In this document: one piece after another, positions 2,313 to 26,514 of the stretch
Numbering within the stretch: position 1 is the first letter of the stretch
Layout: every line of letters starts with the position of its first letter
Assembly: GCF_055900595.2 (NCBI RefSeq)
Contig: NZ_CM148325.1
DNA: 64,000 bases
Reading direction: 5' to 3' (one strand)
Notes under the pieces: generated by a model
Databases searched by the model: none
What the model was told of the DNA's origin: nothing
What the model saw: the letters and a program-made list of their open reading frames with translations, nothing else
Program-made: the position numbers and the translations under genes

Positions 2313-3446
2313 CTACATCGGCAAGGTTTTCAACAATCCAAACGCCTCTTTCATCCGATCCTCACTGACTACAAAGGCGCGAAGCTGGTCGGCATCGTCA
2401 ACGCCGCGCGCCACCATTCCCTGGCTTTCGGTACAAATCTGCCAGCGCAAATCCCGACGCTGGGTTTCGCCTGCCAGATGCAGCGGTAATTCCGGCGTTT
2501 TGATTTTCACCAGCATCGCCGGGAGTTTCAGCGGCGTGTTATTGCCGAGAAGATTTTTTGCCAGCACCATCGCGCTAAGTTGAATCGGCTGGAGGAACGG
2601 CAATACCTGACCGTTAATTTCCGCGCAATCGCCCAGCGCATAAATATCGGCATTACTGGTTTGCAGATAACTATCGACGCAAACGCCGCGATTAATCGTC
2701 AGCCCTGCACGTCGTGCCAGGGCGGTTTCCGGGCGCAGTCCGGTGGCGGCAATTACCGCATCCACTTCGATGCTGCGCTGGCGGTCCAGCGTTGCCAGAA
2801 TGCCAGAATCCGTTTTTTCCAGCCCCTGCAACTGAGATTTCAACAGCAGATGAACGCCCATCTCCGTCAACCGATGCTGTAAGCGACTGCTTACTTCCGG
2901 TGGCATTAACGACGCCAGAATACTGGCAGCGTTGTCGATTAGCGTGACCGCTTTGCCTGCCCGACAAAAATCCATCGCCAGTTCGCTACCAATCAAACCA
3001 CCGCCTACAATCAACACCCGTCGGGCATCCCTCAGTTGTGTTTCACAGGCGCGATACTCTTGCTGACTATTTAACGTCAGCATTAACTCACGCCCAGGCA
3101 CCGGCGGGACAAAGGCGTTGGCACCGGTTGCCAGCACTAGCTTGTCGTATTGCCACTGATTATTCTGGCTTTTCACCACATGGGCTTCGGCATCGATATC
3201 CGTCACCCAGGTGTGCGGAAACAGGCGCAGATTAAACTGCTCGGCAAATTCACCCGCCGTCTGGCGGGTAAGGTCGTCGGCACGTTGCCCCTGACTGATC
3301 ACATGGCTAAGATCAGGTTTGTTGTACTCATCCATGCTGTCGGCGGCAATCAGGGTCAATGGAATACCGGTATCCTGTTTACGAATATTTTTCACCAGTT
3401 GGCGGGCGGCGAAGCCTGAACCAATGATCACAATGCCGTTGCTCAT
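2313..3446 (-). CDS. norW: NADH:flavorubredoxin reductase
   Basis: 377-aa ORF with N-terminal FAD/NAD Rossmann motif ([10 protein letters not shown]), overlaps norV stop by 4 nt. Confidence 0.93.
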
Positions 3447-4882
3447 TTTGCCTCCGATGCCAGTTCGTCAAAGACGTCTTTGCCGAGAGAGCATTCCGGG
3501 CACAGGAAGTTATCCGGGACTTCACTCCACGGCGTTCCTGGCGCAACGTCCTGCATTGGCTCGCCTTTTGCCGGATCGTAAATCCACTGGCAGACACTGC
3601 ACTGCATCCGTGGGCCGAGGTCAGCCGTCGTGGTGGCACAGGTTTCTTCTTTAACCACCGTATTCACCGTGCTCTGTGGCAGCGGCGAAAGCGCCCACTG
3701 ACGGGCAATTTCACGACCGTGTTCACGGCATAACTCCAGCGCGTCCTGGTCCGGTCGCCATTTGGCTTTCAGGCTAAGCGACATTTCGAAACCTGCATCC
3801 TGCAGGCGTGTGGAAAGACGATCCACCGCACCGCCGCTCCAGCCGTGAGAGCCGAAAGCACTGGCGCGTTTGTTACGGAAGCGTAATCCGGTCATCTCCT
3901 CCACCAGCCCGGCGATTTTCGGCATCATCACGTTATTCATCGTCGACGTGCCGACCAGCACGCCTTTTGAGCGGAAGACATTGGTCAGGATTTCGTTTTT
4001 ATCGCTTCGGGCAACGTTGAAAATTTTCACCGCCACGCGTGGGTCGGTTTCCGCAATACCCTGGGCGATAGCATCGGCCATCATGCGGGTATTATTCGAC
4101 ATGGTGTCGTAGAAAATGGTGATTCTGTCTTCCTGATAATCCGCCGCCCATTTCAGGTACAGCTCGACAATTTGCGTCGGGTTATCGCGCCATACCACGC
4201 CGTGAGAGGTCGCTATCATATCGACCGGCAAGTTAAAGCCCAGGATCTCGGTGATTTTCGGCGTTACCAGGCGGCTGAACGGTGTCAGGATATTGGCGTA
4301 GTAACGCTGACACTGCTCGAAAAGCTCGGTCTGATCCACTTCATCGTTGAAGAGATGCTCGTCGCAGTAGTGCTGACCGAAAGCATCGTTACTGAACAGC
4401 ACCGCGTCGCCCGTCAGGTAAGTCATCATGCTGTCCGGCCAGTGCAGCATTGGCGTTTCGACAAAAATGAGTTGTTTGCCGTTGCCGATATCCAGCGTGT
4501 CGCCGGTTTTCACCACGTTGAAATTCCACTCCGGATGATGGTGATGACCATTTATTGAGTCGATAGCGTTGGCAGTACAATAGATCGGCGTATCGGGAAT
4601 TTGCGCCATCAGTTCGGTCAGCGCCCCGGCGTGGTCCTCTTCAGCATGGTTAATCACGATGTAATCGATATCCGCCAGATCGATTTCATTACGCAGGTTC
4701 TGCACAAATTCGCGGCTGAATTTATGGTCGACGGTGTCGATCAGTACGTTTTTTTCTTCGCGGATGAGGTAGCTGTTGTAACTGCTGCCGCGCAGCGTTT
4801 TATATTCTGTACCGTGAAAATCACGCACTTCCCAGTCACGTTGACCAACCCAATGAATGTTATTTTTCACCACAATAGACAT
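3443..4882 (-). CDS. norV: Anaerobic nitric oxide reductase flavorubredoxin
   Basis: 479-aa ORF; metallo-beta-lactamase/flavodoxin core and C-terminal rubredoxin Cys pairs (CSVCQWIYD...CPECS). Confidence 0.94.
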
Positions 4883-4929
4883 AGCAACCTCAATTTATTC
4901 AGCGTGTTCTAAAAAGATGTCTTGCTAAT

Positions 4930-4945
4930 TGCAGATTGCGTGCCA
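4930..4945 (-). promoter_or_regulatory. sigma54 (-24/-12) promoter of norVW
   Basis: Minus-strand sequence TGGCACGCAATCTGCA fits TGGCAC-N5-TTGCW just upstream of norV. Confidence 0.7.
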
Positions 4946-5000
4946 GTTTTTTATCTAATTGTTTTTAATCTATAAATTAATTTATGCTCATTAATGAGTA

Positions 5001-5056
5001 GTCAAAATGACTATCAATAAAATGGTCGATATGACAATATCTATAGTCAAATTGAC
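5001..5056. promoter_or_regulatory. Three NorR enhancer sites (GT-N7-AC): gtcaaaatgac, gtcgatatgac, gtcaaattgac
   Basis: Three evenly spaced GT-N7-AC inverted repeats in norR-norV divergent intergenic region. Confidence 0.75.
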
Positions 5057-5068
5057 AGTGAGGCAAAG

Positions 5069-6583
5069 ATGAGTTTTTCCGTTGATGTGCTGGCGAATAT
5101 CGCCATCGAATTGCAGCGTGGGATTGGTCATCAGGATCGTTTTCAGCGCCTGATCACCACGCTGCGTCAGGTGCTGGAGTGCGATGCGTCTGCGTTGCTA
5201 CGTTACGACTCGCGGCAGTTTATTCCGCTTGCCATCGACGGGCTGGCGAAGGATGTACTCGGTAGACGCTTTGCGCTGGAAGGTCATCCACGGCTGGAAG
5301 CGATTGCCCGCGCCGGGGACGTGGTGCGTTTTCCCGCAGACAGCGAATTGCCCGATCCTTATGACGGTTTGATTCCCGGGCAGGAGAGTCTGAAGGTTCA
5401 CGCCTGCGTTGGTCTGCCGTTATTTGCCGGACAAAACCTGATCGGTGCATTGACACTCGACGGGATGCAGCCCGATCAGTTCGATGTTTTCAGCGACGAA
5501 GAGTTACGGCTGATTGCCGCGCTGGCGGCGGGAGCGTTAAGCAATGCGTTGCTGATTGAACAGCTGGAAAGTCAGAATATGCTGCCGGGCGATGCCGCGC
5601 CGTTTGAAGCGCTGAAAGAGACGCAGATGATCGGCCTGTCGCCAGGCATGACGCAATTGAAAAAAGAGATTGAGATTGTGGCGGCGTCCGATCTCAACGT
5701 CCTAATCAGTGGTGAGACGGGAACGGGTAAGGAGCTGGTGGCGAAAGCGATTCATGAAGCCTCGCCACGGGCGGTGAATCCGTTAGTCTATCTCAACTGT
5801 GCCGCACTGCCGGAAAGTGTGGCGGAAAGTGAGTTGTTTGGGCACGTGAAAGGGGCGTTTACTGGCGCTATCAGTAACCGCAGTGGGAAGTTTGAAATGG
5901 CGGATAACGGCACGCTGTTTCTGGATGAGATCGGCGAGTTGTCGTTGGCATTGCAGGCCAAGCTGCTGCGGGTGTTGCAGTATGGCGATATTCAGCGCGT
6001 TGGCGATGACCGCAGTTTGCGGGTCGATGTGCGCGTGCTGGCGGCGACTAACCGCGACTTGCGCGAAGAGGTGCTGGCAGGGCGATTTCGTGCTGACTTG
6101 TTTCATCGCCTGAGTGTGTTTCCGCTTTCGGTGCCGCCGCTGCGTGAGCGGGGTGATGACGTCATTCTGCTGGCGGGGTATTACTGCGAACAGTGCCGCC
6201 TGCGGTTGGGGCTTTCCCGCGTGGTGTTAAGTTCCGGGGCGCGGAATTTATTGCAACATTATAGTTTCCCGGGGAACGTGCGCGAACTGGAACATGCTAT
6301 TCATCGGGCGGTGGTGCTGGCGAGAGCGACCCGCAGCGGCGATGAAGTGATTCTCGAGGCGCAACATTTTGCTTTTCCTGAGGTGACGTTGCCGCCGCCA
6401 GAAGCGGCGGCGGTGCCTATTGTTAAGCAAAACCTGCGTGAAGCGACAGAAGCGTTCCAGCGTGAAACTATTCGCCAGGCGCTGGCACAAAATCATCACA
6501 ACTGGGCTGCCAGCGCACGGATGCTGGAAACCGACGTCGCCAACCTGCATCGGCTGGCGAAACGTCTGGGGCTGAAGGATTAA
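5069..6583 (+). CDS. norR: Sigma54-dependent NO-responsive transcriptional activator NorR
   Basis: 504 aa; GAF N-terminus, AAA+ sigma54 activator core ([14 protein letters not shown]), C-terminal HTH. Confidence 0.94.
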
Positions 6584-7545
6584 ATAATCCCGGCCTGATA
6601 GAAATCCTGCAGGTTAATTGCGCCGGTAAGTTTGCCATTTTCATCCACCACTGGTGCGGCGGTGATTTTGCGCTTCATCAGAACTTCTTTGGCGTCGATG
6701 GCGCGACTTTGCGATAGCAACGTCGTGCCGCCTGCCGTCATCGCTTCATTAACTGGCGTGGTGAGTGCACCGCCGCCAACCAGCCAGCGACGTAAATCCC
6801 CGTCGGTAAAGACGCCTTTCACCAGCCGTTGATCGTCGCACACGGCTACCAGTCCCAGACCGGTGCGACTAAGTTCCAGCATCGCATCCATCACGCTGGC
6901 GGTTAACGCCACCTGCGGGATGGTGTCATCACGGCGCATCAGATGATGCACTTTGTTCAGCAAGCGAGCGCCCAGAGCCCCAGCTGGGTGGGAGCGGGCA
7001 AAATCTTCTTCATTAAATCCGCGCGCCTGCATGACCGCCATCGCCAGCGCGTCGCCCATCATCAGGGTATTGACGGTGCTGGAGGTCGGCGCAAGGTGCA
7101 TCGGGCAGGCTTCGCGTTCTACAGAGATATCCAGCACCGCTTTCGCCGCCAGGCCCAGCGGTGATGTCGGTTTACCGGTCATCGCCAGCAGCGCGATAGA
7201 TTTGTCTTCCAGACGCGGAATAATCAGATCCAGTTCCTTTGCGCCACCGGAGTAAGAGATAAACAGCATCACATCGCGGCTTTCAATCATCCCCAGATCG
7301 CCGTGCAGTGCTTCTGCCGGATGGACAAAAAAAGCAGGCGTGCCGGTACTGGCAAGCGTTGCGGCGATTTTCTTACCAATGTGGCCCGATTTGCCAATTC
7401 CCGAAACCACCACTTTGCCTTCGCAGTGCAGGATGATATTGGCGGCGCGAACAAAATCATCGCCCAGACGTTCTGGTAAACGGCTTGCTTCCTGCAACTC
7501 CAGCATTAACGTCTGACGCCCCGCGTTCAGTAGTGCTTCACTCAT
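6580..7545 (-). CDS. gutQ: D-arabinose 5-phosphate isomerase GutQ (SIS + CBS domains)
   Basis: 321-aa ORF matching GutQ; follows srlR in srl operon. Confidence 0.92.
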
Positions 7546-8311
7546 TGCTCTCTCCGGTTATGATCACATCGATCCCTTTCTCTTCCAGCGCCTGACGAAA
7601 CGCCGGATCGATACCTGCGTCGGTAATCAGCTTATCGACGCTTTCAAGACTACAAACCACGTTGGGGCTTTTACGGCCAAACTTCGATGAGTCAGCCATC
7701 AAAATCACTTCGCGCGCGGCATTACACATCGCTTTACTGACGGTATAGACCTCGTTGAAGGTGGTTACGCCTGCATTGAGATCGATGCCATCGGTGCCCA
7801 TAAACAATTTATCGAAGCTGAAATGTTCGAAGGCGTTCTCTGCCAGCTGCCCGTGAAATGAGGCCGATTTTTTACGAAATGTGCCGCCTGGCATCAGGAT
7901 AGTTTGTTCGTTATCCAGTTCGGATAGCGCATTGACGATGTGCAGGCTGTTGGTCATCACCGTGATGTTATTAAAGCGCGAGAGCAGGGGCACCATCTGT
8001 AATACAGTACTTCCAGCATCAAGAATGATTGAATCGCCATCATGAATAAAACTGACGGCAGCTTCTGCAATCAGCTCTTTCTTGTGGGTGTTGATGAGTG
8101 TTTTATGATCGATAGGCGGATCGGATTCCTCTTTATTCAACACCACTCCGCCATAAGTACGAATGACGGTTCCTGCATGTTCCAGAATGACCAGATCTTT
8201 GCGAATGGTTGTGCCTGTGGTGTCAAAGTATTGCGCCAATTCTTCAACCGAGCATTTCCCCTGCTTTTGCAGGTACTCCAGAATGGCGGCCTGACGCTGA
8301 CGAGGTTTCAT
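7538..8311 (-). CDS. srlR: DeoR-family glucitol operon repressor
   Basis: 257 aa, N-terminal DeoR HTH, operon context. Confidence 0.92.
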
Positions 8312-8377
8312 GGGCGTGATTACCTGATTTAGGTTTCAAAATGATAACTTCGCAAGCTAGTAACATTCACAACGAAA

Positions 8378-8737
8378 TTATCCACGTTTCAGTTTAAGCG
8401 CCAATGATAGAGCATTCTGTGATAGTGGATCATGGGGAAAGATCACATCGGGCTGTAAATCAGCAGAATGCATGCCCGTAATTGCGGGAATTTTTTGCGG
8501 TCGGGCGAAGACAGTCAGTCCTTTCATAAACAAGGTGTCGACGATGCGCTGCTGATCGTCCAGGGCGATGGCGACCACGACCCGCGGTTTAAAGCGCCCG
8601 CTGGAACGGCCCACGCCAACCCGCCCTTGCTGGCAAAGTGCGTCGAAGGCGCGGTTAAAACGAGAAATTTGCCAGCCGCCTAAGGCCAGTTGCGCACACC
8701 AGGCGATAACGGCGACGGTGATGAGTGTGGATACCAT
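8378..8737 (-). CDS. gutM: Glucitol operon activator GutM
   Basis: 119 aa, N-terminal membrane anchor, position between srlD and srlR. Confidence 0.9.
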   Translation of the reverse strand: MVSTLITVAVIAWCAQLALGGWQISRFNRAFDALCQQGRVGVGRSSGRFKPRVVVAIALDDQQRIVDTLFMKGLTVFARPQKIPAITGMHSADLQPDVIFPHDPLSQNALSLALKLKRG

Positions 8738-8768
8738 AACTTTTCCTTAATGTAGCGGCGGAAGTCCT

Positions 8769-8797
8769 GTAGGCCTGATCAACGTAGCGCATCAGGC
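8769..8797. repeat. REP palindromic element
   Basis: gtaggcctgatcaacgtagcgcatcaggc palindrome in srlD-gutM intergenic. Confidence 0.6.
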
Positions 8798-8842
8798 ATT
8801 CTATTAGTCTCGCGGAGATCCTTAACGGATCTCCGCTGTTGA

Positions 8843-9997
<1,155 letters not shown>

Positions 9998-20586: not shown

Positions 20587-22170
<1,584 letters not shown>

Positions 22171-22178
22171 CAGAAAAG

Positions 22179-22251
22179 AAAAAGGCCACTCGTGAGTGGC
22201 CAAAATTTCATCTCTGAATTCAGGGATGATGATAACAAATGCGCGTCTTTC
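22179..22251 (-). ncRNA. micA: sRNA MicA (SraD)
   Basis: Minus strand reads GAAAGACGCGCATTTGTTATCATCATCCCTGAATTCAGAGATGAAATTTTGGCCACTCACGAGTGGCCTTTTT; terminator hairpin plus T-run; convergent with gshA 3' end. Confidence 0.88.
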
Positions 22252-22319
22252 ATATACTCAGACTCGCCTGGGAAGAAAGAGTTCAGAAAATTTTTAAAAA
22301 AATTACCGGAGGTGGCTAA

Positions 22320-22835
22320 ATGCCGTTGTTAGATAGCTTCACAGTCGATCATACCCGGATGGAAGCGCCTGCAGTTCGGGTGGCGAAAACAATGAACACC
22401 CCGCATGGCGACGCAATCATCGTGTTCGATCTGCGCTTCTGCGTGCCGAACAAAGAAGTGATGCCAGAAAGAGGGATCCATACCCTGGAGCACCTGTTTG
22501 CTGGTTTTATGCGTAACCATCTTAACGGTAATGGCGTAGAGATTATCGATATCTCGCCAATGGGCTGCCGCACCGGTTTTTATATGAGTCTGATTGGTAC
22601 GCCAGATGAGCAGCGTGTCGCTAATGCCTGGAAAGCGGCAATGGAAGACGTGCTGAAAGTGCAGGATCAGAATCAGATCCCGGAACTGAACGTCTACCAG
22701 TGTGGCACTTACCAGATGCATTCGTTGCAGGAAGCGCAGGATATTGCGCGTAGCATTCTGGAGCGCGATGTACGCATTAACAGTAATGAAGAACTGGCAC
22801 TGCCAAAAGAGAAGTTGCAGGAATTGCACATCTAG
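22320..22835 (+). CDS. luxS: S-ribosylhomocysteine lyase (AI-2 synthase)
   Basis: 171 aa with HTLEH metal motif. Confidence 0.96.
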
Positions 22836-22853
22836 TCAGTTTAAGCAGAAGAG

Positions 22854-22887
22854 GCCGGGCTGGTGAAATCACCGCCCGGCTTTTATT
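22854..22887 (+). terminator. Rho-independent terminator after luxS (possibly bidirectional)
   Basis: ggccgggctggtgaaatcaccgcccggc hairpin followed by ttttatt; overlaps stop of convergent HD-kinase gene. Confidence 0.7.
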
Positions 22888-23998
22888 ACCTGTCAGTCAC
22901 CCGATATTCCACGCTATGTGCTTCATCAGGTTGAGGAACTTCCAGCCTTGAGGCCATCCGCATCACGACCGCTTCAGGAACGGCATACTCGCGCCTGGCA
23001 TTTTGCTGCTTCCATTGCGCCCACGGTACTTCCAGATAAACGATTTTTACTCGTGCACCGTAAGCCGTAAATAGACTGATGAGCTGGCTACGCAACTGGC
23101 GGGTAATGTTCGTTGCATTCCAGATGAACGGCTTCTTCTGGCGTAAAAAAACGCGCGCTTCTTCTTTTGCCTGTTGCACAATACGCCCGGTGGCGGTTTT
23201 GTCGTCCGGACTGGCATTGATTCGCCGCCGCATATCATCAAGGCTGATAACGTTCACTCTCTGGCACTGTTCACTGATAAAGCGATCTTTGCCCATACCC
23301 GGTAAACCACACAGCAAAATAACCTCAAAAGATTCAGCCTCCCAGGGAACAAAATCAGGAGAACTTTGTTCATGGGTCAGGTAATGCCAGCGTGCGGAAT
23401 CCGAAGCGAATGAACGCACTTTTCCCCAGCATTGTTGCTCCTGGCAAAATAGCTCGAACAGATCGATGCGTTCCAGCATTGATTGCTGATCATGACAATG
23501 GCGACCAAGCAGATCGGCACGAGCAAGCAAAGCGAGCAGACGTGTGTCGATACGCATTGCAGCCGTGAGCAGCAAACGCTCCGGTTCCGGACGTTCCAGT
23601 AACCATAGCGGTAACCCATGCAGACGCACCAGTGCAACAATTTGCTCGCGTAGCACGAACGGCGTCGGGATATCGCGCCATAAAATTTGTCGGGCCGTCA
23701 ATTCCCCCCGACGAGCATGACCAGGGGACTGAATACGTCCGTTTTCCTGCACGGTAGTACTGCGCTTTTCAACGTCATGCAATAACGCCGCCGCCCATAA
23801 AATTTCCTGCTGCTGAGCGGGGAGTTGCTGAAACTCAGCCATCGCAACGAGTGCGTTCAGCACCATTTCAGTATGCACACCAACGTCGCCTTCACCATGA
23901 TGCTCCGGGTCTTGCGGCGTGTTATGCATATCCTCAACCCAGCTAAAACGCTGGCGTAGCGTCGACCAGCGTTTGTCGTCGGTAAGTTGCCAAATCAT
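22886..23998 (-). CDS. HD-domain phosphohydrolase fused to P-loop polynucleotide-kinase-like domain (candidate RNA end-healing enzyme)
   Basis: 370 aa; N-terminal H...HD motifs ([24 protein letters not shown]); C-terminal Walker A ([13 protein letters not shown]); start overlaps upstream ligase stop (ATGA). Confidence 0.6.
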
Positions 23999-24702
23999 GA
24001 CTGTTCTCCATAAGCGAACTCATGGGCCATCCGCGCCCGTCGCCAGTGGCGTTTCCAGTGCTCGGTGGTTTTGACATGATTTTTGCGCACATACTTGAAG
24101 ACGTTATGCGAAAAGTCAGCGACGGAAAACGCATCACGATTCCGGCTGACAATGCCTTCCAGCGTACAGGGTTGCCCGGTTTGTGTATCCCAGGGATCGA
24201 ACGCGCCGCGCGCATTGGTCAGCGCCAGAAAATCACGTTGCCAGCTTTTTTCATCATTCCCCGGCTGCGGGCCGGAGATTTCGGGAACGCAGGGGAAATC
24301 AAACAGAGCGGCGTAAAACTGCACCTCTTCCCAGCTCAGCCACATATCCTGGCAGCGAACGGCAAACAGGTAAAAGTCCTGTTCCAGGGCGCGGTATTCA
24401 ATGGAATGAACGGCGTAGAGATTTTCACCAAACAGTTCCAGATCGCCGAGATCGTTTTTCAGCAGTTGCCAACGCTGGCGAATTTTATAAGTCCATGCCG
24501 ACTGCGTAGGCGCAGCATGGGAACGGGCAAACACGCCGTAGCGGTTAAGGCAGTTATTTTCGCCGTCGAGTTTTTCTGTATGCACCAATTGCGTGATGGC
24601 CTGTAAATCCTGCCAGTAATCGGCATTAATACGGTCATCGCTGGTGGTGCCAGGGGAGAAAGGATAATGCCAGGTTCTCCCGTATTTCCGTTGGGTATTC
24701 AT
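23995..24702 (-). CDS. Minimal Rnl-type RNA ligase (nucleotidyltransferase domain only; candidate RNA sealing enzyme)
   Basis: 235 aa; motif I KxDGxN (EKLDGEN), motif III-like LFGENLY, motif IV EGIVSR, motif V FKYVRKNH in canonical order. Confidence 0.6.
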
Positions 24703-24923
24703 AATAATCCATTATTTTGTGTGTAATAAATGTACGCCCGCGAGGGTGCGAGTTATGGGGTTAAAAGAAAAATGTGAGTATCACCCGCGAAAGCGAGGGC
24801 GAAGGAAAAAGAGAATTAACAACCTGAGCGAATGCTCAGAACCGGTTAATGGTGAATGGAAGAGTTTGGGGCGGCGAAAAGATACACCGTTTGAGATGAT
24901 AAAACAACCGTTTACAGAATGAG

Positions 24924-24950
24924 CAAATAAAAAGGGAGCCGCAGCTCCCT
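24924..24950 (-). terminator. Rho-independent terminator after emrB
   Basis: Minus strand agggagctgcggctccct hairpin followed by ttttattt, placed between emrB stop and ligase gene. Confidence 0.7.
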
Positions 24951-24959
24951 TTGACAACC

Positions 24960-26498
24960 TTAGTGCGCACCGCCTCCGCCGCCACCTGCGCCAAATGGCG
25001 GTTTAGCAAACCACACCAGCCCCAGCAGGACGAGGAATATCCCGGCTGACATCCAGAAGATCTCATTGGCGGAAATAATCAGCCCCTGATTGGTGATCTG
25101 CTGGGCAATCCAGCCTGATGCCTGTTGTTGCGTCATCCCCAGCCCTTCCAGTTGGCTGTACATCGCCTGAGCGTTCGGGTTAAACGGGTTTACCGACTCG
25201 GTTAACTGTGCGTGGTGCATCGACTCGCGGTTAGTCCACATGGTGGTGGTGATGGATGTGCCGATAGACCCCGCCAGCGTTCGCGTAAAGTTAGAGAGGC
25301 TCGATGCCGCCGCCAGTCGTTCCGGTGGCAAACCAGACAGCGTAATGGTGGTCAGCGGCATAAAGAAGCAGGCCACTGCGAAGCCCTGGATAAACTGCGG
25401 CCAGGCCGACGCACCAAAATCCATACCCGGTTCAAAGGTATAGGCACGCCAGTAGAAGCAGACGGCATACATAATAAAGCTGAAGGTTACCAGCCGCCGC
25501 ATATCCAGTTTATGCGCGAAGCGGCCGATAATCGGCGACAGGATCACCGGAATAATCCCTACCGGCGCAGAGGCCAAACCTGCCCAGGTCGCCGTGTAAC
25601 CGTAGACCTCCTGCAACAACTGCGGCAGCAGAACAATCGCGCCGAAGTAGAGCATATACGCGAGGCTGATACACAAGCAGCCGATGGTGAAGTTGCGCGA
25701 CTTAAACAACGACAGATCGACTATCGGGTTATCGTCGGTCAGCTCCCAGACAATCAGGAAGCAGATAGCCACCACCGCCACCACGGTGAGGATGATTATT
25801 TCCTGCGATGAGAACCAGTCCAGCTCTTTACCGCGGTCGAGCATAATCTGCAGGCTGCCGATACCAATCACCAGCAGTGCCAGCCCCACGGCATCAATCC
25901 GCCGCCGTTCGGTGCGGGTTTCGCGTCCGCGCAGGGTTTGCAGTGTCATCAACACCACCGCCACGCCAATCGGCACGTTGATGAAGAATATCCAGCCCCA
26001 GTGGTAATTATCGCTGATATAACCGCCGAGGATCGGGCCGCAAATTGGCGCGACAATCACCGTCATCGACCACAACGCCAGCGCGATCGAGCGTTTGGCT
26101 GGCGGGTAGTTATTCAGCAATAGACTTTGCGAAAGCGGGATCAATGGCCCGGCGACAATCCCCTGAATCACGCGGAAGAAGATCAGCATATTCAGGCTGC
26201 TGGAGACACCACATGCCCACGATGCAATAGCGAAGGCGATGGTCGACCAGAGGAACAGCTTCACTTCCCCAACACGTTTTGCCAGCCAGCCGGTAAGCGG
26301 GATCGAGATGGCATTCGCCACCCCGAAAGAAGTGATTACCCACGTTCCCTGGCTGAGCGATGAGCCCAGATTCCCGGCGATAGTGGGGATCGCCACGTTA
26401 GCAATGGTGGAGTCCAGCACCTGCATGAATGTCGCTAGTGACAGCGCAATCGTCATAATGACCAGTTGCGCGCCTTCCAGCGGTTTTTGCTGTTGCAT
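24960..26498 (-). CDS. emrB: Multidrug efflux MFS permease EmrB
   Basis: Track ORF 515 aa; probable start MQQQKPLEGAQLVIM at 26498; 14-TM MFS. Confidence 0.95.
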   Translation of the reverse strand: MQQQKPLEGAQLVIMTIALSLATFMQVLDSTIANVAIPTIAGNLGSSLSQGTWVITSFGVANAISIPLTGWLAKRVGEVKLFLWSTIAFAIASWACGVSSSLNMLIFFRVIQGIVAGPLIPLSQSLLLNNYPPAKRSIALALWSMTVIVAPICGPILGGYISDNYHWGWIFFINVPIGVAVVLMTLQTLRGRETRTERRRIDAVGLALLVIGIGSLQIMLDRGKELDWFSSQEIIILTVVAVVAICFLIVWELTDDNPIVDLSLFKSRNFTIGCLCISLAYMLYFGAIVLLPQLLQEVYGYTATWAGLASAPVGIIPVILSPIIGRFAHKLDMRRLVTFSFIMYAVCFYWRAYTFEPGMDFGASAWPQFIQGFAVACFFMPLTTITLSGLPPERLAAASSLSNFTRTLAGSIGTSITTTMWTNRESMHHAQLTESVNPFNPNAQAMYSQLEGLGMTQQQASGWIAQQITNQGLIISANEIFWMSAGIFLVLLGLVWFAKPPFGAGGGGGGAH

Positions 26499-26514
26499 TA
26501 CACGCACCTCTGGA

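Follow-up and report, generated by a model that had tools for sequence, protein, structure and literature searches.

What is the function of two minus-strand genes that lie between luxS and emrB in an Escherichia coli chromosome? The original prediction, made from a 64,000-nucleotide stretch of contig NZ_CM148325.1 (the window), described them as a translationally coupled pair for RNA end healing and sealing, composed of a stand-alone ligase (LIG) and a fusion of an HD phosphohydrolase to a P-loop kinase (HD-Pnk). Both open reading frames and their overlap were found in the window, and we consider it probable that the pair is an accessory copy of LIG/HD-Pnk, a cassette for the healing and sealing of ends. 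The locus comprises the following features, with gene boundaries taken from the open reading frame listing.

22320–22835, plus strand: luxS, convergent with HD-Pnk
22841–24959, either strand: allele-specific segment, 2119 bp in place of 58 bp in K-12-like genomes
22854–22880, either strand: luxS/HD-Pnk hairpin common to both convergent genes, folding at −26.3 kcal/mol (plus) and −22.2 kcal/mol (minus)
22886–23998, minus strand: HD-Pnk, a predicted 370-aa bifunctional end-healing protein
22925–23335, minus strand: P-loop 5′-OH polynucleotide kinase domain (AAA_33), C-terminal, about residues 222–358
23285–23308, minus strand: P-loop GLPGMGKD within the HD-Pnk kinase domain
23429–23926, minus strand: HD phosphoesterase domain, N-terminal, about residues 25–190 (HHxEGD, H42, H74-D75, H94, H127, D162)
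23995–23998, minus strand: ATGA overlap of the ligase TGA and the HD-Pnk ATG, a translational coupling
23995–24702, minus strand: LIG, a 235-aa stand-alone adenylyltransferase (RNA-ligase-like) with no OB or other appended domain
24556–24576, minus strand: ligase motif I EKLDGEN (residues 43–49), in which K44 is the predicted AMP-accepting lysine
24703–24959, minus strand: emrB–LIG spacer, 257 bp, containing the emrB terminator and a conserved palindrome
24823–24840, minus strand: hairpin or palindrome CTGAGC-N4-GCTCAG (terminator scan), conserved across eight species
24931–24952, minus strand: emrB terminator (terminator scan)
24960–26507, minus strand: emrB, upstream of LIG on the same strand, 257 bp away

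In K-12-like genomes, the luxS and emrB stop codons are separated by only 63 bp containing one hairpin, in agreement with the claim that this slot holds no genes in K-12. Comparison of the interval across E. coli genomes defined the presence and absence of the pair, and a three-way alignment, with ATCC 25922 and one empty-site genome beside the window, gave the boundaries of the allele-specific segment. The indel boundaries showed no flanking repeats or mobile-element signatures; a mobile-element origin of the segment was rejected, because the repeat search returned short chance matches only. No third gene and no Hen1 occupies the slot, and MicA was the sole match in an Rfam scan of the region.

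The pair is present in 994 of 5,426 complete E. coli genomes (18%), and the identical luxS–emrB slot holds it in eight Enterobacteriaceae species. Both genes are under purifying selection, with dN/dS values between E. coli alleles of 0.04 for LIG and 0.11 for HD-Pnk; these values, together with the thousands of homologues found for each protein, argue against chance open reading frames, and the pair is probably real and functional. A GC content of 0.51–0.54 and a divergence matching that of the flanking genes bear out the description of an old, backbone-like module. The suggestion that the module was ‘inserted’, however, probably has the direction wrong: as the slot is shared by eight species and the genes are under purifying selection, the pair looks ancestral in this position and repeatedly lost. 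LIG is frameshifted in 109 E. coli genomes, including those of Nissle 1917 and ATCC 25922, which carry a 10-bp deletion, and is therefore dispensable at least in those lineages; this counts against the preferred reading.

The hairpin shared by the convergent genes, followed on the plus strand by UUUUAUUA, serves luxS well as a terminator and the LIG/HD-Pnk operon less well. At the other end, the operon promoter presumably lies within the emrB–LIG spacer. RNAalifold detected no covariation in the CTGAGC-N4-GCTCAG stem of this leader, so that an RNA structure and a DNA palindrome are not distinguishable there. A scan of the minus strand of the spacer gave no consensus sigma-70 site, and neither a sigma-54 site nor a LexA-type box (CTGT-N8-ACAG) was seen in the spacer by eye. 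That no recognisable promoter was found counts against the preferred reading.

LIG matches the Pfam family RNA_ligase (PF09414, 4.4e-28) over residues 38–205, and all of the nucleotidyltransferase motifs named in the original prediction are present in canonical order. In a 63-sequence family alignment, K44, D46 and G47 (motif I), E93 (motif III), E182 and G183 (motif IV) and K203 (motif V) are invariant; K44, D46 and G47 are likewise invariant in 29 multi-domain relatives. E182 and K203 belong to the motifs required for ligation steps 2 and 3, all of which are conserved. The alignment also revealed a conserved N-terminal segment that is specific to the LIG family (K6, Y7, R9, H12, S16, D22 and D23). 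The AlphaFold model (pLDDT 94.7) is made up of one compact domain, with no more than 37 residues at the N terminus and a short helix at the C terminus beyond it, as expected for a protein said to lack an OB or C-terminal domain.

Foldseek matched the nucleotidyltransferase fold of the model with a probability of 1.0 to Naegleria Rnl5, T4 Rnl2, archaeal Rnl3, Trl1-LIG and T4 Rnl1, the RNA ligases aligning at a TM score of about 0.5 and 15–20% identity. RNA ligases from several families head the PDB matches and DNA ligases come below them, an order that lends support to an RNA substrate. A search of PDB with the single LIG sequence returned hemocyanins, which were judged spurious as sums of weak repeated-domain matches; the family-profile search led to RNA ligases instead, with the Candida glabrata Trl1 adenylyltransferase domain as its top match (5e-5). 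NCBIfam contains no model for LIG. The appended substrate-binding domains that define the Rnl1 to Rnl5 families were sought as the C-terminal domain of Rnl1, Rnl2 and Rnl3 and the N-terminal OB-like domain of Rnl5, and none is present in the 235-residue, one-domain model; LIG was therefore filed with the LIG/LigB clade and not with Rnl1–5. Judged by its motifs, it is an OB-less member of the covalent nucleotidyltransferase superfamily (PF09414). Among the 29 multi-domain relatives, a polynucleotide-kinase domain occurs in 15, a 2H phosphoesterase in 8 and a PTP-type phosphatase in 7, an arrangement that follows the same heal-and-seal logic with different 3′-healing modules.

The fusion of an HD domain to a P-loop kinase was also recovered in HD-Pnk, by a strong Pfam match to AAA_33 (2.2e-31) and a weak one to HD (PF01966, 1.6e-3), so that every profile match anticipated by the original prediction (RNA_ligase, HD and AAA_33/PNK-like) was obtained. 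Against NCBIfam, the HD domain matched HDIG just below its cut-off (2.7e-5; 23.9 bits, cut-off 27.6) and the HD region of the CCA-adding enzyme (1.8e-5), and Foldseek paired it with the HD-bearing tRNA-processing enzyme 3wfp. Residues H34, H42, H74-D75, H94, H127 and D162, and the P-loop G-L-P-G-M-G-K237-D238, show little or no variation among 16 homologues. The AlphaFold model of the protein has a pLDDT of 91.1. Its kinase domain matches the kinase of Clostridium thermocellum Pnkp by sequence and by fold (TM 0.74), and by fold also T4 Pnk (TM 0.73) and mammalian PNKP; the match to the bacterial Pnkp model TIGR04075 covers the kinase segment only (2e-9; 36 bits against a cut-off of 750). In the alignment with the C. 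thermocellum kinase, D254 and R257 fall on the Asp and Arg of its SSDxxR segment. The P-loop is a GKD variant, in which Asp replaces the usual Ser/Thr after the lysine, and this counts against the preferred reading.

The two genes are closely linked. LIG lies directly upstream of HD-Pnk in all 80 loci compared, which come from Enterobacterales and Bacteroidota and cover two phyla. By curated models, RtcB adjoins the pair in 26 of these loci, accompanied by PrfH in 14 of the 26, and Tpt1/KptA is near the pair in two. RtcB–PrfH is physically next to LIG/HD-Pnk in Serratia, many Bacteroides, Mucilaginibacter and Dysgonomonas; in Dysgonomonas, Tpt1 also occurs with the pair, together with NADAR and Nudix genes. 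RtcB2–PrfH has been shown experimentally to be a 16S rRNA repair module (PMC9304027, PMC9223846), and its adjacency suggests that the target is RNA belonging to the translation machinery. The literature searched on PrfH mentions neither a polynucleotide kinase nor a gene of the ligase family next to PrfH. Two observations on the neighbourhoods count against the preferred reading. Healing by HD-Pnk would remove the 3′-phosphate/5′-OH ends that RtcB needs, so that the two routes would compete, with no obvious cooperation, and in E. coli none of RtcB, PrfH and Tpt1 neighbours the pair within the window.

If the pair acts as such a cassette, repair would proceed in three steps. The HD domain, with a transition metal bound by its His and Asp residues, would hydrolyse a 2′,3′-cyclic, 3′- or 2′-phosphate to leave a 2′,3′-diol. 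The P-loop kinase would then move the γ-phosphate of an NTP onto the 5′-OH, with K237 in the P-loop, D254 as the likely general base and R257 contacting the acceptor. LIG would react with ATP to form LIG-AMP at K44 and pass the AMP to the new 5′-phosphate, after which attack by the 3′-OH would seal the break. The ATGA overlap may cause the two proteins to be made in fixed proportion and, having no substrate-binding domain of its own, LIG may require either HD-Pnk or a structured substrate in order to act. The sequence analysis itself established the domain identities, the conserved catalytic residues, the strict linkage of the genes, purifying selection and homology to the Deinococcus pair. 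Phosphoesterase, kinase and self-adenylylation activities are assigned by analogy with homologues described in the literature; that LIG seals strands, that RNA is the target and that ribotoxin damage is the trigger are inferences. The proposal of three activities agrees with the biochemistry of the homologues and with the gene neighbourhoods. An important caveat concerns sealing: no ligase of this family is known to join strands, and Runella LIG and Deinococcus LigB are reported to self-adenylylate without joining any substrate tested.

The Deinococcus homologues are also the source of an alternative, in which HD-Pnk cleans 3′-phosphate/5′-OH ends at oxidative or radiation-induced DNA breaks and LIG, perhaps with partners, seals DNA. 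Repair of DNA breaks is the role proposed for the D. radiodurans ligB–PARG–HD-Pnk operon. The pair is directly homologous to DR_B0100 and DR_B0098 of that operon, which is induced by radiation; mutants in HD-Pnk show sensitivity to ionising radiation and to mitomycin C, and in one study LigB is reported to have ligated DNA when DR_B0098 and PprA were present (PMC6300522). This phenotype points to DNA and counts against an RNA target, the kinase domain is also similar to mammalian PNKP, and a title cited by PMC6097658 calls Runella HD-Pnk a DNA/RNA end-healing enzyme. LigB alone, however, did not ligate DNA (PMC1997131), LIG has no OB or DNA-clamping domain, the solved ligases nearest to it in sequence and fold act on RNA, those acting on DNA ranking below them, no CTGT-N8-ACAG box was seen upstream, and the recurrent neighbours in the clade of the E. 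coli genes (RtcB, PrfH and Tpt1) are RNA-specific. A role in DNA repair, which the original prediction named among the outcomes that would refute it, is improbable but not negligible. An anti-phage defence or toxin–antitoxin-like system, with the kinase or HD domain as an effector and not a repair enzyme, is far less credible still. The patchy, accessory distribution (18% of E. coli genomes), weak matches to the phage families phrog_6931 and phrog_24030 and one homologue in a 462-kb uncultured phage would suit it, but PADLOC has no family matching LIG or HD-Pnk, the chromosomal slot is stable, without mobile-element context or flanking repeats, the divergence looks vertical, and the repair-enzyme active sites are intact in both proteins.

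There is a modest chance that LIG is not a conventional strand joiner, and that it acts on a special end, on an embedded nick, in a complex with HD-Pnk, or by transferring AMP to another acceptor. The special end could be a 2′-PO4 of the kind used by fungal Trl1, in which case Tpt1 would complete the junction, and the embedded nick could lie within a ribosome or tRNA; on this reading the cassette would heal ends and then mark or cap them instead of simply resealing them. Two homologues self-adenylylate and, in what the sources report of them, join nothing tested (PMC6097658, PMC1997131, PMC5397189), and Tpt1 is described as clustered with the pair in Runella (PMC6097658), as it is in the two loci noted above. 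LIG consists of a lone nucleotidyltransferase domain and an N-terminal segment conserved within its family, its top PDB profile match is the C. glabrata Trl1 domain (5e-5), and it is strictly co-linear and overlapping with HD-Pnk. Against these points, the motifs for ligation steps 2 and 3 are all conserved (E182 and K203), and linkage to Tpt1 is rare (2/80), E. coli K-12 having kptA and lacking the LIG/HD-Pnk cassette. Runella HD-Pnk reportedly removes 2′-, 3′- and cyclic phosphates, in which case no 2′-PO4 end would remain after its action.

Cassettes of this type are already known, but the question of what their ligase does dates from 2007, and the organisms that hold the prototypes have limited genetics. 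Among E. coli strains a natural experiment is at hand: K-12 and about 82% of complete genomes have no such pair, ST131-type O25:H4 isolates, for example, have it intact, and others, such as Nissle 1917 and ATCC 25922, combine HD-Pnk with a frameshifted ligase. Protection from colicin E3 by RtcB2–PrfH was shown in ATCC 25922, and hence in a background where the LIG route was no longer available. The adjacency to RtcB–PrfH in Serratia and Bacteroides yields the concrete hypothesis that the substrate is RNA of the translation machinery. More speculatively, the pair might provide extraintestinal pathogenic E. coli and gut Bacteroides with a second, RtcB-independent repair of ribotoxin-cut rRNA or tRNA, in which LIG seals only when docked on HD-Pnk or at a nick embedded in a ribosome or tRNA. 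We regard this extension as rather unlikely, but if true it would explain why isolated Runella LIG and Deinococcus LigB fail to ligate in vitro, why the LIG and HD-Pnk genes are never separated, and why they adjoin RtcB–PrfH in many genomes. If colicins or toxin RNases are indeed countered by the pair, clinical lineages of E. coli would differ in a factor that affects their fitness.

The same three-activity logic (3′ phosphoesterase, 5′-OH kinase and ATP-dependent ligase) is found in T4 Pnkp with Rnl1 and in bacterial Pnkp/Hen1, and the E. coli kinase domain has those of C. thermocellum Pnkp and T4 Pnk as relatives in both sequence and fold. The systems differ in 3′ healing, which is assigned to an HD domain in E. 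coli, a DxD acid phosphatase in T4 and a calcineurin-type phosphoesterase in bacterial Pnkp, and in the ligase, which in E. coli is a separate, bare nucleotidyltransferase domain; the locus contains no calcineurin-type phosphoesterase, fused ligase domain or Hen1 methyltransferase partner. RtcB2–PrfH likewise targets 2′,3′-cyclic-phosphate/5′-OH breaks, but by unrelated chemistry, a GTP-dependent ligation of 3′-phosphate to 5′-OH, and is absent from the window. Fungal and plant Trl1 and the ‘Swiss Army Knife’ proteins combine a ligase, a polynucleotide kinase and a 3′-healing phosphoesterase, as the E. coli pair does, and the multi-domain relatives of LIG carry AAA_33 or tRNA-ligase kinase domains with 2H or PTP phosphatase domains. 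Trl1 and the ‘Swiss Army Knife’ proteins are, however, single polypeptides with 2H or PTP healing modules instead of HD, and Trl1 needs a 2′-PO4 end, a requirement that is only hypothetical for LIG.

Literature searches found no published account of an RNA ligase locus between luxS and emrB in E. coli, nor newer work on the function of LigB or LIG. The ‘distinct architecture’ that had been claimed for the pair is not new. In Deinococcus, a homologous ligase and HD-Pnk are encoded in the same order and orientation: LIG is 35% identical to DR_B0100 (LigB/DdrP), and HD-Pnk is 28% identical to DR_B0098 over its full length and both domains (E = 4e-30). LigB self-adenylylates and DR_B0098 is a 5′-kinase (PMC1997131). 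The Deinococcus operon differs in its megaplasmid location, radiation induction and DNA-damage phenotype, the E. coli pair being chromosomal, and in a PARG-like gene (DR_B0099) between the ligase and HD-Pnk genes that has no counterpart in E. coli. Its HD-Pnk has 413 residues, with an inter-domain insertion, compared with 370 in E. coli, and a GSGKS P-loop in place of GMGKD.

For Runella slithyformis, PMC6097658 (citing Munir & Shuman 2017) describes a LIG/HD-Pnk operon that encodes an N-terminal HD and a C-terminal P-loop 5′-OH kinase in one protein of about 370 residues, with a small ATP-dependent ligase-like gene upstream whose 3′ end overlaps the HD-Pnk start, as in E. coli. The same account gives Runella HD-Pnk as a 2′,3′-phosphoesterase and 5′-OH kinase and Runella LIG as forming an enzyme-AMP; for this LIG and for LigB, the sources describe self-adenylylation with no joining of the DNA or RNA substrates tried (PMC6097658, PMC1997131, PMC5397189). 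The Runella cluster, as reported, adds Tpt1 (AEI48611) and a methyltransferase-HIT gene upstream, whereas E. coli has the two-gene core only. A protein search seeded with the Dyadobacter homologue gave no match named Runella, and the link to this prototype is indirect, running through Dyadobacter relatives and the published description: E. coli HD-Pnk shares 55% identity with its homologue from Dyadobacter, a member of Runella’s family, and 53–59% with proteins of the bacteroidotal clade that contains this family. With its HD domain, Pnkp-type kinase, full-length homology to DR_B0098 and upstream ligase-like gene, the E. coli pair belongs, as judged by homology, to the LIG/HD-Pnk cassette of Runella and Deinococcus, an architecture that was already known.

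The luxS–emrB interval of the window carries two minus-strand genes, which encode a 235-residue ligase-like protein (LIG) and a 370-residue protein combining an HD domain with a P-loop kinase (HD-Pnk). The features of the locus, in window coordinates, are the following.

22180–22251, minus strand: MicA small RNA between gshA and luxS (Rfam RF00078, 83.9 bits), expected for the region
22320–22835, plus strand: luxS, convergent with the pair
22854–22880: strong hairpin between luxS and HD-Pnk (fold −26.3 kcal/mol on the plus strand, −22.2 on the minus strand)
22886–23998, minus strand: HD-Pnk, 370 aa (ORF listing)
23995–23998, minus strand: ATGA shared by the LIG stop and the HD-Pnk start (ORF listing and sequence)
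23995–24702, minus strand: LIG, 235 aa (ORF listing)
24931–24952: emrB terminator hairpin (terminator scan)
24960–26507, minus strand: emrB, co-oriented with the pair, 257 bp upstream of LIG

The original prediction of two coupled minus-strand reading frames, overlapping at ATGA and lying between the emrB and luxS terminators, was borne out in every detail, and all protein motifs that it quoted are present. It had also stated that K-12 has no genes here, in agreement with the 63-bp luxS–emrB gap of K-12-like genomes, where one hairpin is common to both genes. The occupied allele contains 2119 bp (22841–24959) in place of 58 bp, and a repeat search across these indel boundaries found neither flanking repeats nor mobile-element genes at the occupied allele. 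The spacer is an insertion sequence target as well, since an IS200C transposase lies within it in the empty allele of NZ_OZ465017.1.

Within the emrB–LIG spacer, a perfect palindrome, CTGAGC-N4-GCTCAG (24823–24840, minus strand), has ACCGGTT before it and a U-rich tract after it. The element recurs approximately 140–180 nt upstream of the LIG ATG in all eight Enterobacteriaceae loci with the pair in this slot; its stem keeps one sequence in six of them and has a single changed base in the other two, whereas the loop varies in sequence and in length (4–6 nt). Second terminator, leader attenuator and operator are all possible roles for it, the eight loci showing no covariation in the stem that would choose among these.

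LIG has a single Pfam match, RNA_ligase PF09414 (4.4e-28, residues 38–205), and its AlphaFold model (pLDDT 94.7) consists of one domain. Across 63 aligned members of the family, with identity down to about 30%, the nucleotidyltransferase residues K44, D46 and G47 (motif I), E93 (III), E182 and G183 (IV) and K203 (V) are invariant, and a family-specific N-terminal segment (K6, Y7, R9, H12, S16, D22 and D23) is nearly so. Foldseek against the PDB ranked Naegleria Rnl5, T4 Rnl2, archaeal Rnl3, fungal Trl1-LIG and T4 Rnl1 at the top, with DNA ligases lower, although TM scores to the RNA ligases are only about 0.5 and identities 15–20%; the family profile retrieved the adenylyltransferase domain of Candida glabrata Trl1 (5e-5) and the Naegleria ligase (1e-3). 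On this combined evidence LIG belongs to the RNA-ligase branch and consists of an adenylyltransferase domain alone, with none of the appended domains by which Rnl1 to Rnl5 are defined, as the proposal of a minimal ligase-type nucleotidyltransferase had anticipated. Hemocyanin matches from a single-sequence PDB search were spurious sums of weak repeats, and the names ‘2'-5' RNA ligase’ and ‘poly(A) polymerase’, given to family members by some sources, are unsupported by domain evidence. One 90%-identity protein collection files LIG in a cluster represented by an HD-Pnk.

The assignment of the 370-residue protein to an HD phosphohydrolase fused to a polynucleotide-kinase-like P-loop domain also held. 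Pfam detects HD weakly (1.6e-3) and AAA_33 strongly (2e-31), and among NCBIfam models HDIG and the HD region of CCA-adding enzyme match the N-terminal part, and the bacterial Pnkp kinase segment matches the C-terminal part. The kinase is closest in sequence to that of Clostridium thermocellum Pnkp, followed by tRNA(Sec) kinase and T4 Pnk, and in fold to C. thermocellum Pnkp (TM 0.74), followed by mammalian PNKP and T4 Pnk (0.73). D254 and R257 align opposite Asp and Arg in the SSDxxR segment of C. thermocellum Pnkp, and all of 16 homologues retain the HD residues H34, H42, H74-D75, H94, H127 and D162. The P-loop GLPGMGKD (23285–23308, minus strand) has Asp after the lysine, where P-loops usually carry Ser or Thr; this Asp is invariant in the 16 homologues of the E. 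coli clade, and D. radiodurans DR_B0098 has GSGKS.

Comparison of the interval across 5426 complete E. coli genomes found 994 that carry the pair, in each case on the chromosome, with the products named by PGAP ‘RNA ligase family protein’ and ‘AAA family ATPase’ or ‘ATP-binding protein’. The window matches strain Z0117EC0005, being identical across the 2.8-kb interval queried, and its allele is approximately 4.5% diverged from the common one. E. fergusonii and E. albertii proteins fall in the same 90% clusters as the window pair. The pair lies directly downstream of emrB in representatives of eight species, two from Escherichia and six from elsewhere in the Enterobacteriaceae, with luxS beyond HD-Pnk in all except the Phytobacter locus and directly adjacent in five; Enterobacteriaceae UBA3516 and Kosakonia sp. 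S29 (loci L006 and L007) have about 4.7–5.4 kb of extra DNA between HD-Pnk and luxS. Between E. coli and the six non-Escherichia species, protein identity is 81–88% for LIG and 71–78% for HD-Pnk, in the range of the flanking EmrA (82–85%) and GshA (86–88%). The GC content of the pair (0.51–0.54) is like that of its surroundings. Synonymous divergence between E. coli alleles (about 0.19) matches luxS and emrB, and dN/dS is 0.04 for LIG and 0.10–0.12 for HD-Pnk. The conserved slot, flank-like divergence and GC content uphold the prediction of an old, backbone-like module; the simplest reading is an ancient resident that has been lost repeatedly, not a recent insertion, and the term ‘inserted’ probably has the direction reversed. 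Against the E. coli species-representative genome, window 20614–26507 has synonymous divergence of 0.18 in luxS, 0.27 in emrB, 0.20 in LIG and 0.19 in HD-Pnk; such neighbourhood-wide divergence suggests that the segment as a whole is deeply diverged or recombined, and that the cassette is not peculiar in this respect.

In E. coli ATCC 25922 (L002, 1994–2691), a 10-bp deletion corresponding to window positions ~24343–24352 frameshifts the ligase. A junction-specific query located this allele, with HD-Pnk still intact, in 109 complete genomes, Nissle 1917 among them; the deletion is absent from about 860 carriers. ATCC 25922 is the strain in which RtcB2–PrfH was shown to protect from colicin E3.

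Relatives were found in 342 species, scanned with one genome per species, and the best 80 loci were examined. These include Enterobacterales (Escherichia, Kosakonia, Klebsiella spallanzanii, Phytobacter, Serratia, Providencia, Xenorhabdus, Budvicia and others) and Bacteroidota (Bacteroides, Mucilaginibacter, Chitinophaga, Niastella, Dyadobacter and Dysgonomonas). Among these best 80, the ligase gene is directly upstream of HD-Pnk on the same strand in every locus. Just two neighbours recur across phyla, an RtcB-family ligase in 26 of the 80 and PrfH (release factor H) in 14. They are present in each of the five Serratia loci, in most Bacteroides and in single Mucilaginibacter and Dysgonomonas loci, nearly always directly upstream of LIG; RtcB is downstream in two. 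The Serratia neighbours exceed the curated cut-offs of TIGR03073 (release-factor-associated RtcB) and TIGR03072 (PrfH), and the bacteroidotal RtcB neighbours are RtcB-family proteins under the subfamily cut-off. Two arrangements stand out.

L012–L016 (Serratia), L038, L045, L053, L060, L061, L063 and L080 (Bacteroides), L064 and L070: four-gene array, RtcB–PrfH directly upstream of LIG/HD-Pnk
L070 (Dysgonomonas sp. ZJ279), 2526–9100: eight genes, RtcB, PrfH, Tpt1/KptA, LIG, HD-Pnk, Nudix, NADAR and a 196-aa protein

The Nudix protein resembles an ADP-ribose-responsive repressor model, and the Dysgonomonas array links the cassette to NAD/ADP-ribose metabolism. RtcB2–PrfH is experimentally established in ribosome rescue and religation of colicin E3-cut 16S rRNA (PMC9304027; PMC9223846). 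The PrfH/RtcB2 papers searched name no polynucleotide kinase or ligase-family neighbour; the new link to RtcB–PrfH offers a lead on the LIG/HD-Pnk substrate.

We consider a three-step RNA heal-and-seal pathway probable. The HD domain would strip a 2',3'-cyclic or 3'-phosphate and the P-loop kinase would phosphorylate the 5'-OH, as characterized homologues and conserved catalytic residues indicate; LIG would then seal in a K44-AMP-dependent step, predicted from its conserved motifs and the self-adenylylation of homologues. Gene neighbourhood makes tRNA or rRNA cut by ribotoxins the likely substrate. The domains of 29 multi-domain LIG relatives (AAA_33 kinase in 15, 2H phosphoesterase in 8, PTP-type phosphatase in 7) show that the clade has repeatedly been joined to a 5'-kinase and some 3'-healing enzyme, and these relatives, with the neighbourhoods, favour RNA repair. 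DNA-break repair, for which the Deinococcus operon phenotypes argue (PMC6300522), is an improbable alternative.

That LIG is a non-canonical or partner-dependent ligase is unlikely, if less so than action on DNA; it would explain why homologues failed to ligate and why a substrate-binding domain is missing. A defence or toxin system is very improbable, having essentially no support: PADLOC matched no family with LIG or HD-Pnk, and mobile-element signatures are absent. Healing by HD-Pnk would take away the ends that RtcB requires, so where one locus encodes both, the two must act on different substrates or be alternative routes. E. coli, whose strains naturally include carriers, non-carriers and ligase pseudogenes, is a genetically tractable host in which to settle the role of LIG.

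The pair is genuine and the function proposed for it is reasonable. It belongs to a known type of cassette, its activities in E. coli being predicted. In the Runella slithyformis gene cluster described by the Shuman laboratory, which includes HD-Pnk, LIG formed enzyme-AMP and ligated no tested DNA or RNA substrate (PMC6097658). The Deinococcus radiodurans pair has been known since 2007 as LigB (DR_B0100), which self-adenylylates and is inactive as a ligase by itself, and the 5'-kinase DR_B0098 (PMC1997131; PMC5397189). E. coli LIG is 35% identical to DR_B0100, and E. coli HD-Pnk aligns from end to end with DR_B0098 (28% identity, E 4e-30). Its identity to homologues throughout Bacteroidota is 53–59%, including 55% to that of Dyadobacter, of Runella's family Spirosomataceae. 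What had been called a ‘distinct HD-kinase plus stand-alone ligase architecture’ is thus exactly the published one of Runella and Deinococcus. On the D. radiodurans megaplasmid MP1 the operon runs from an RNA-ligase-family protein through TIGR02452-family DR_B0099, the PARG of PMC6300522, to an ‘AAA family ATPase’, and its PARG-like gene links it to NAD/ADP-ribose metabolism, as in the Dysgonomonas array.
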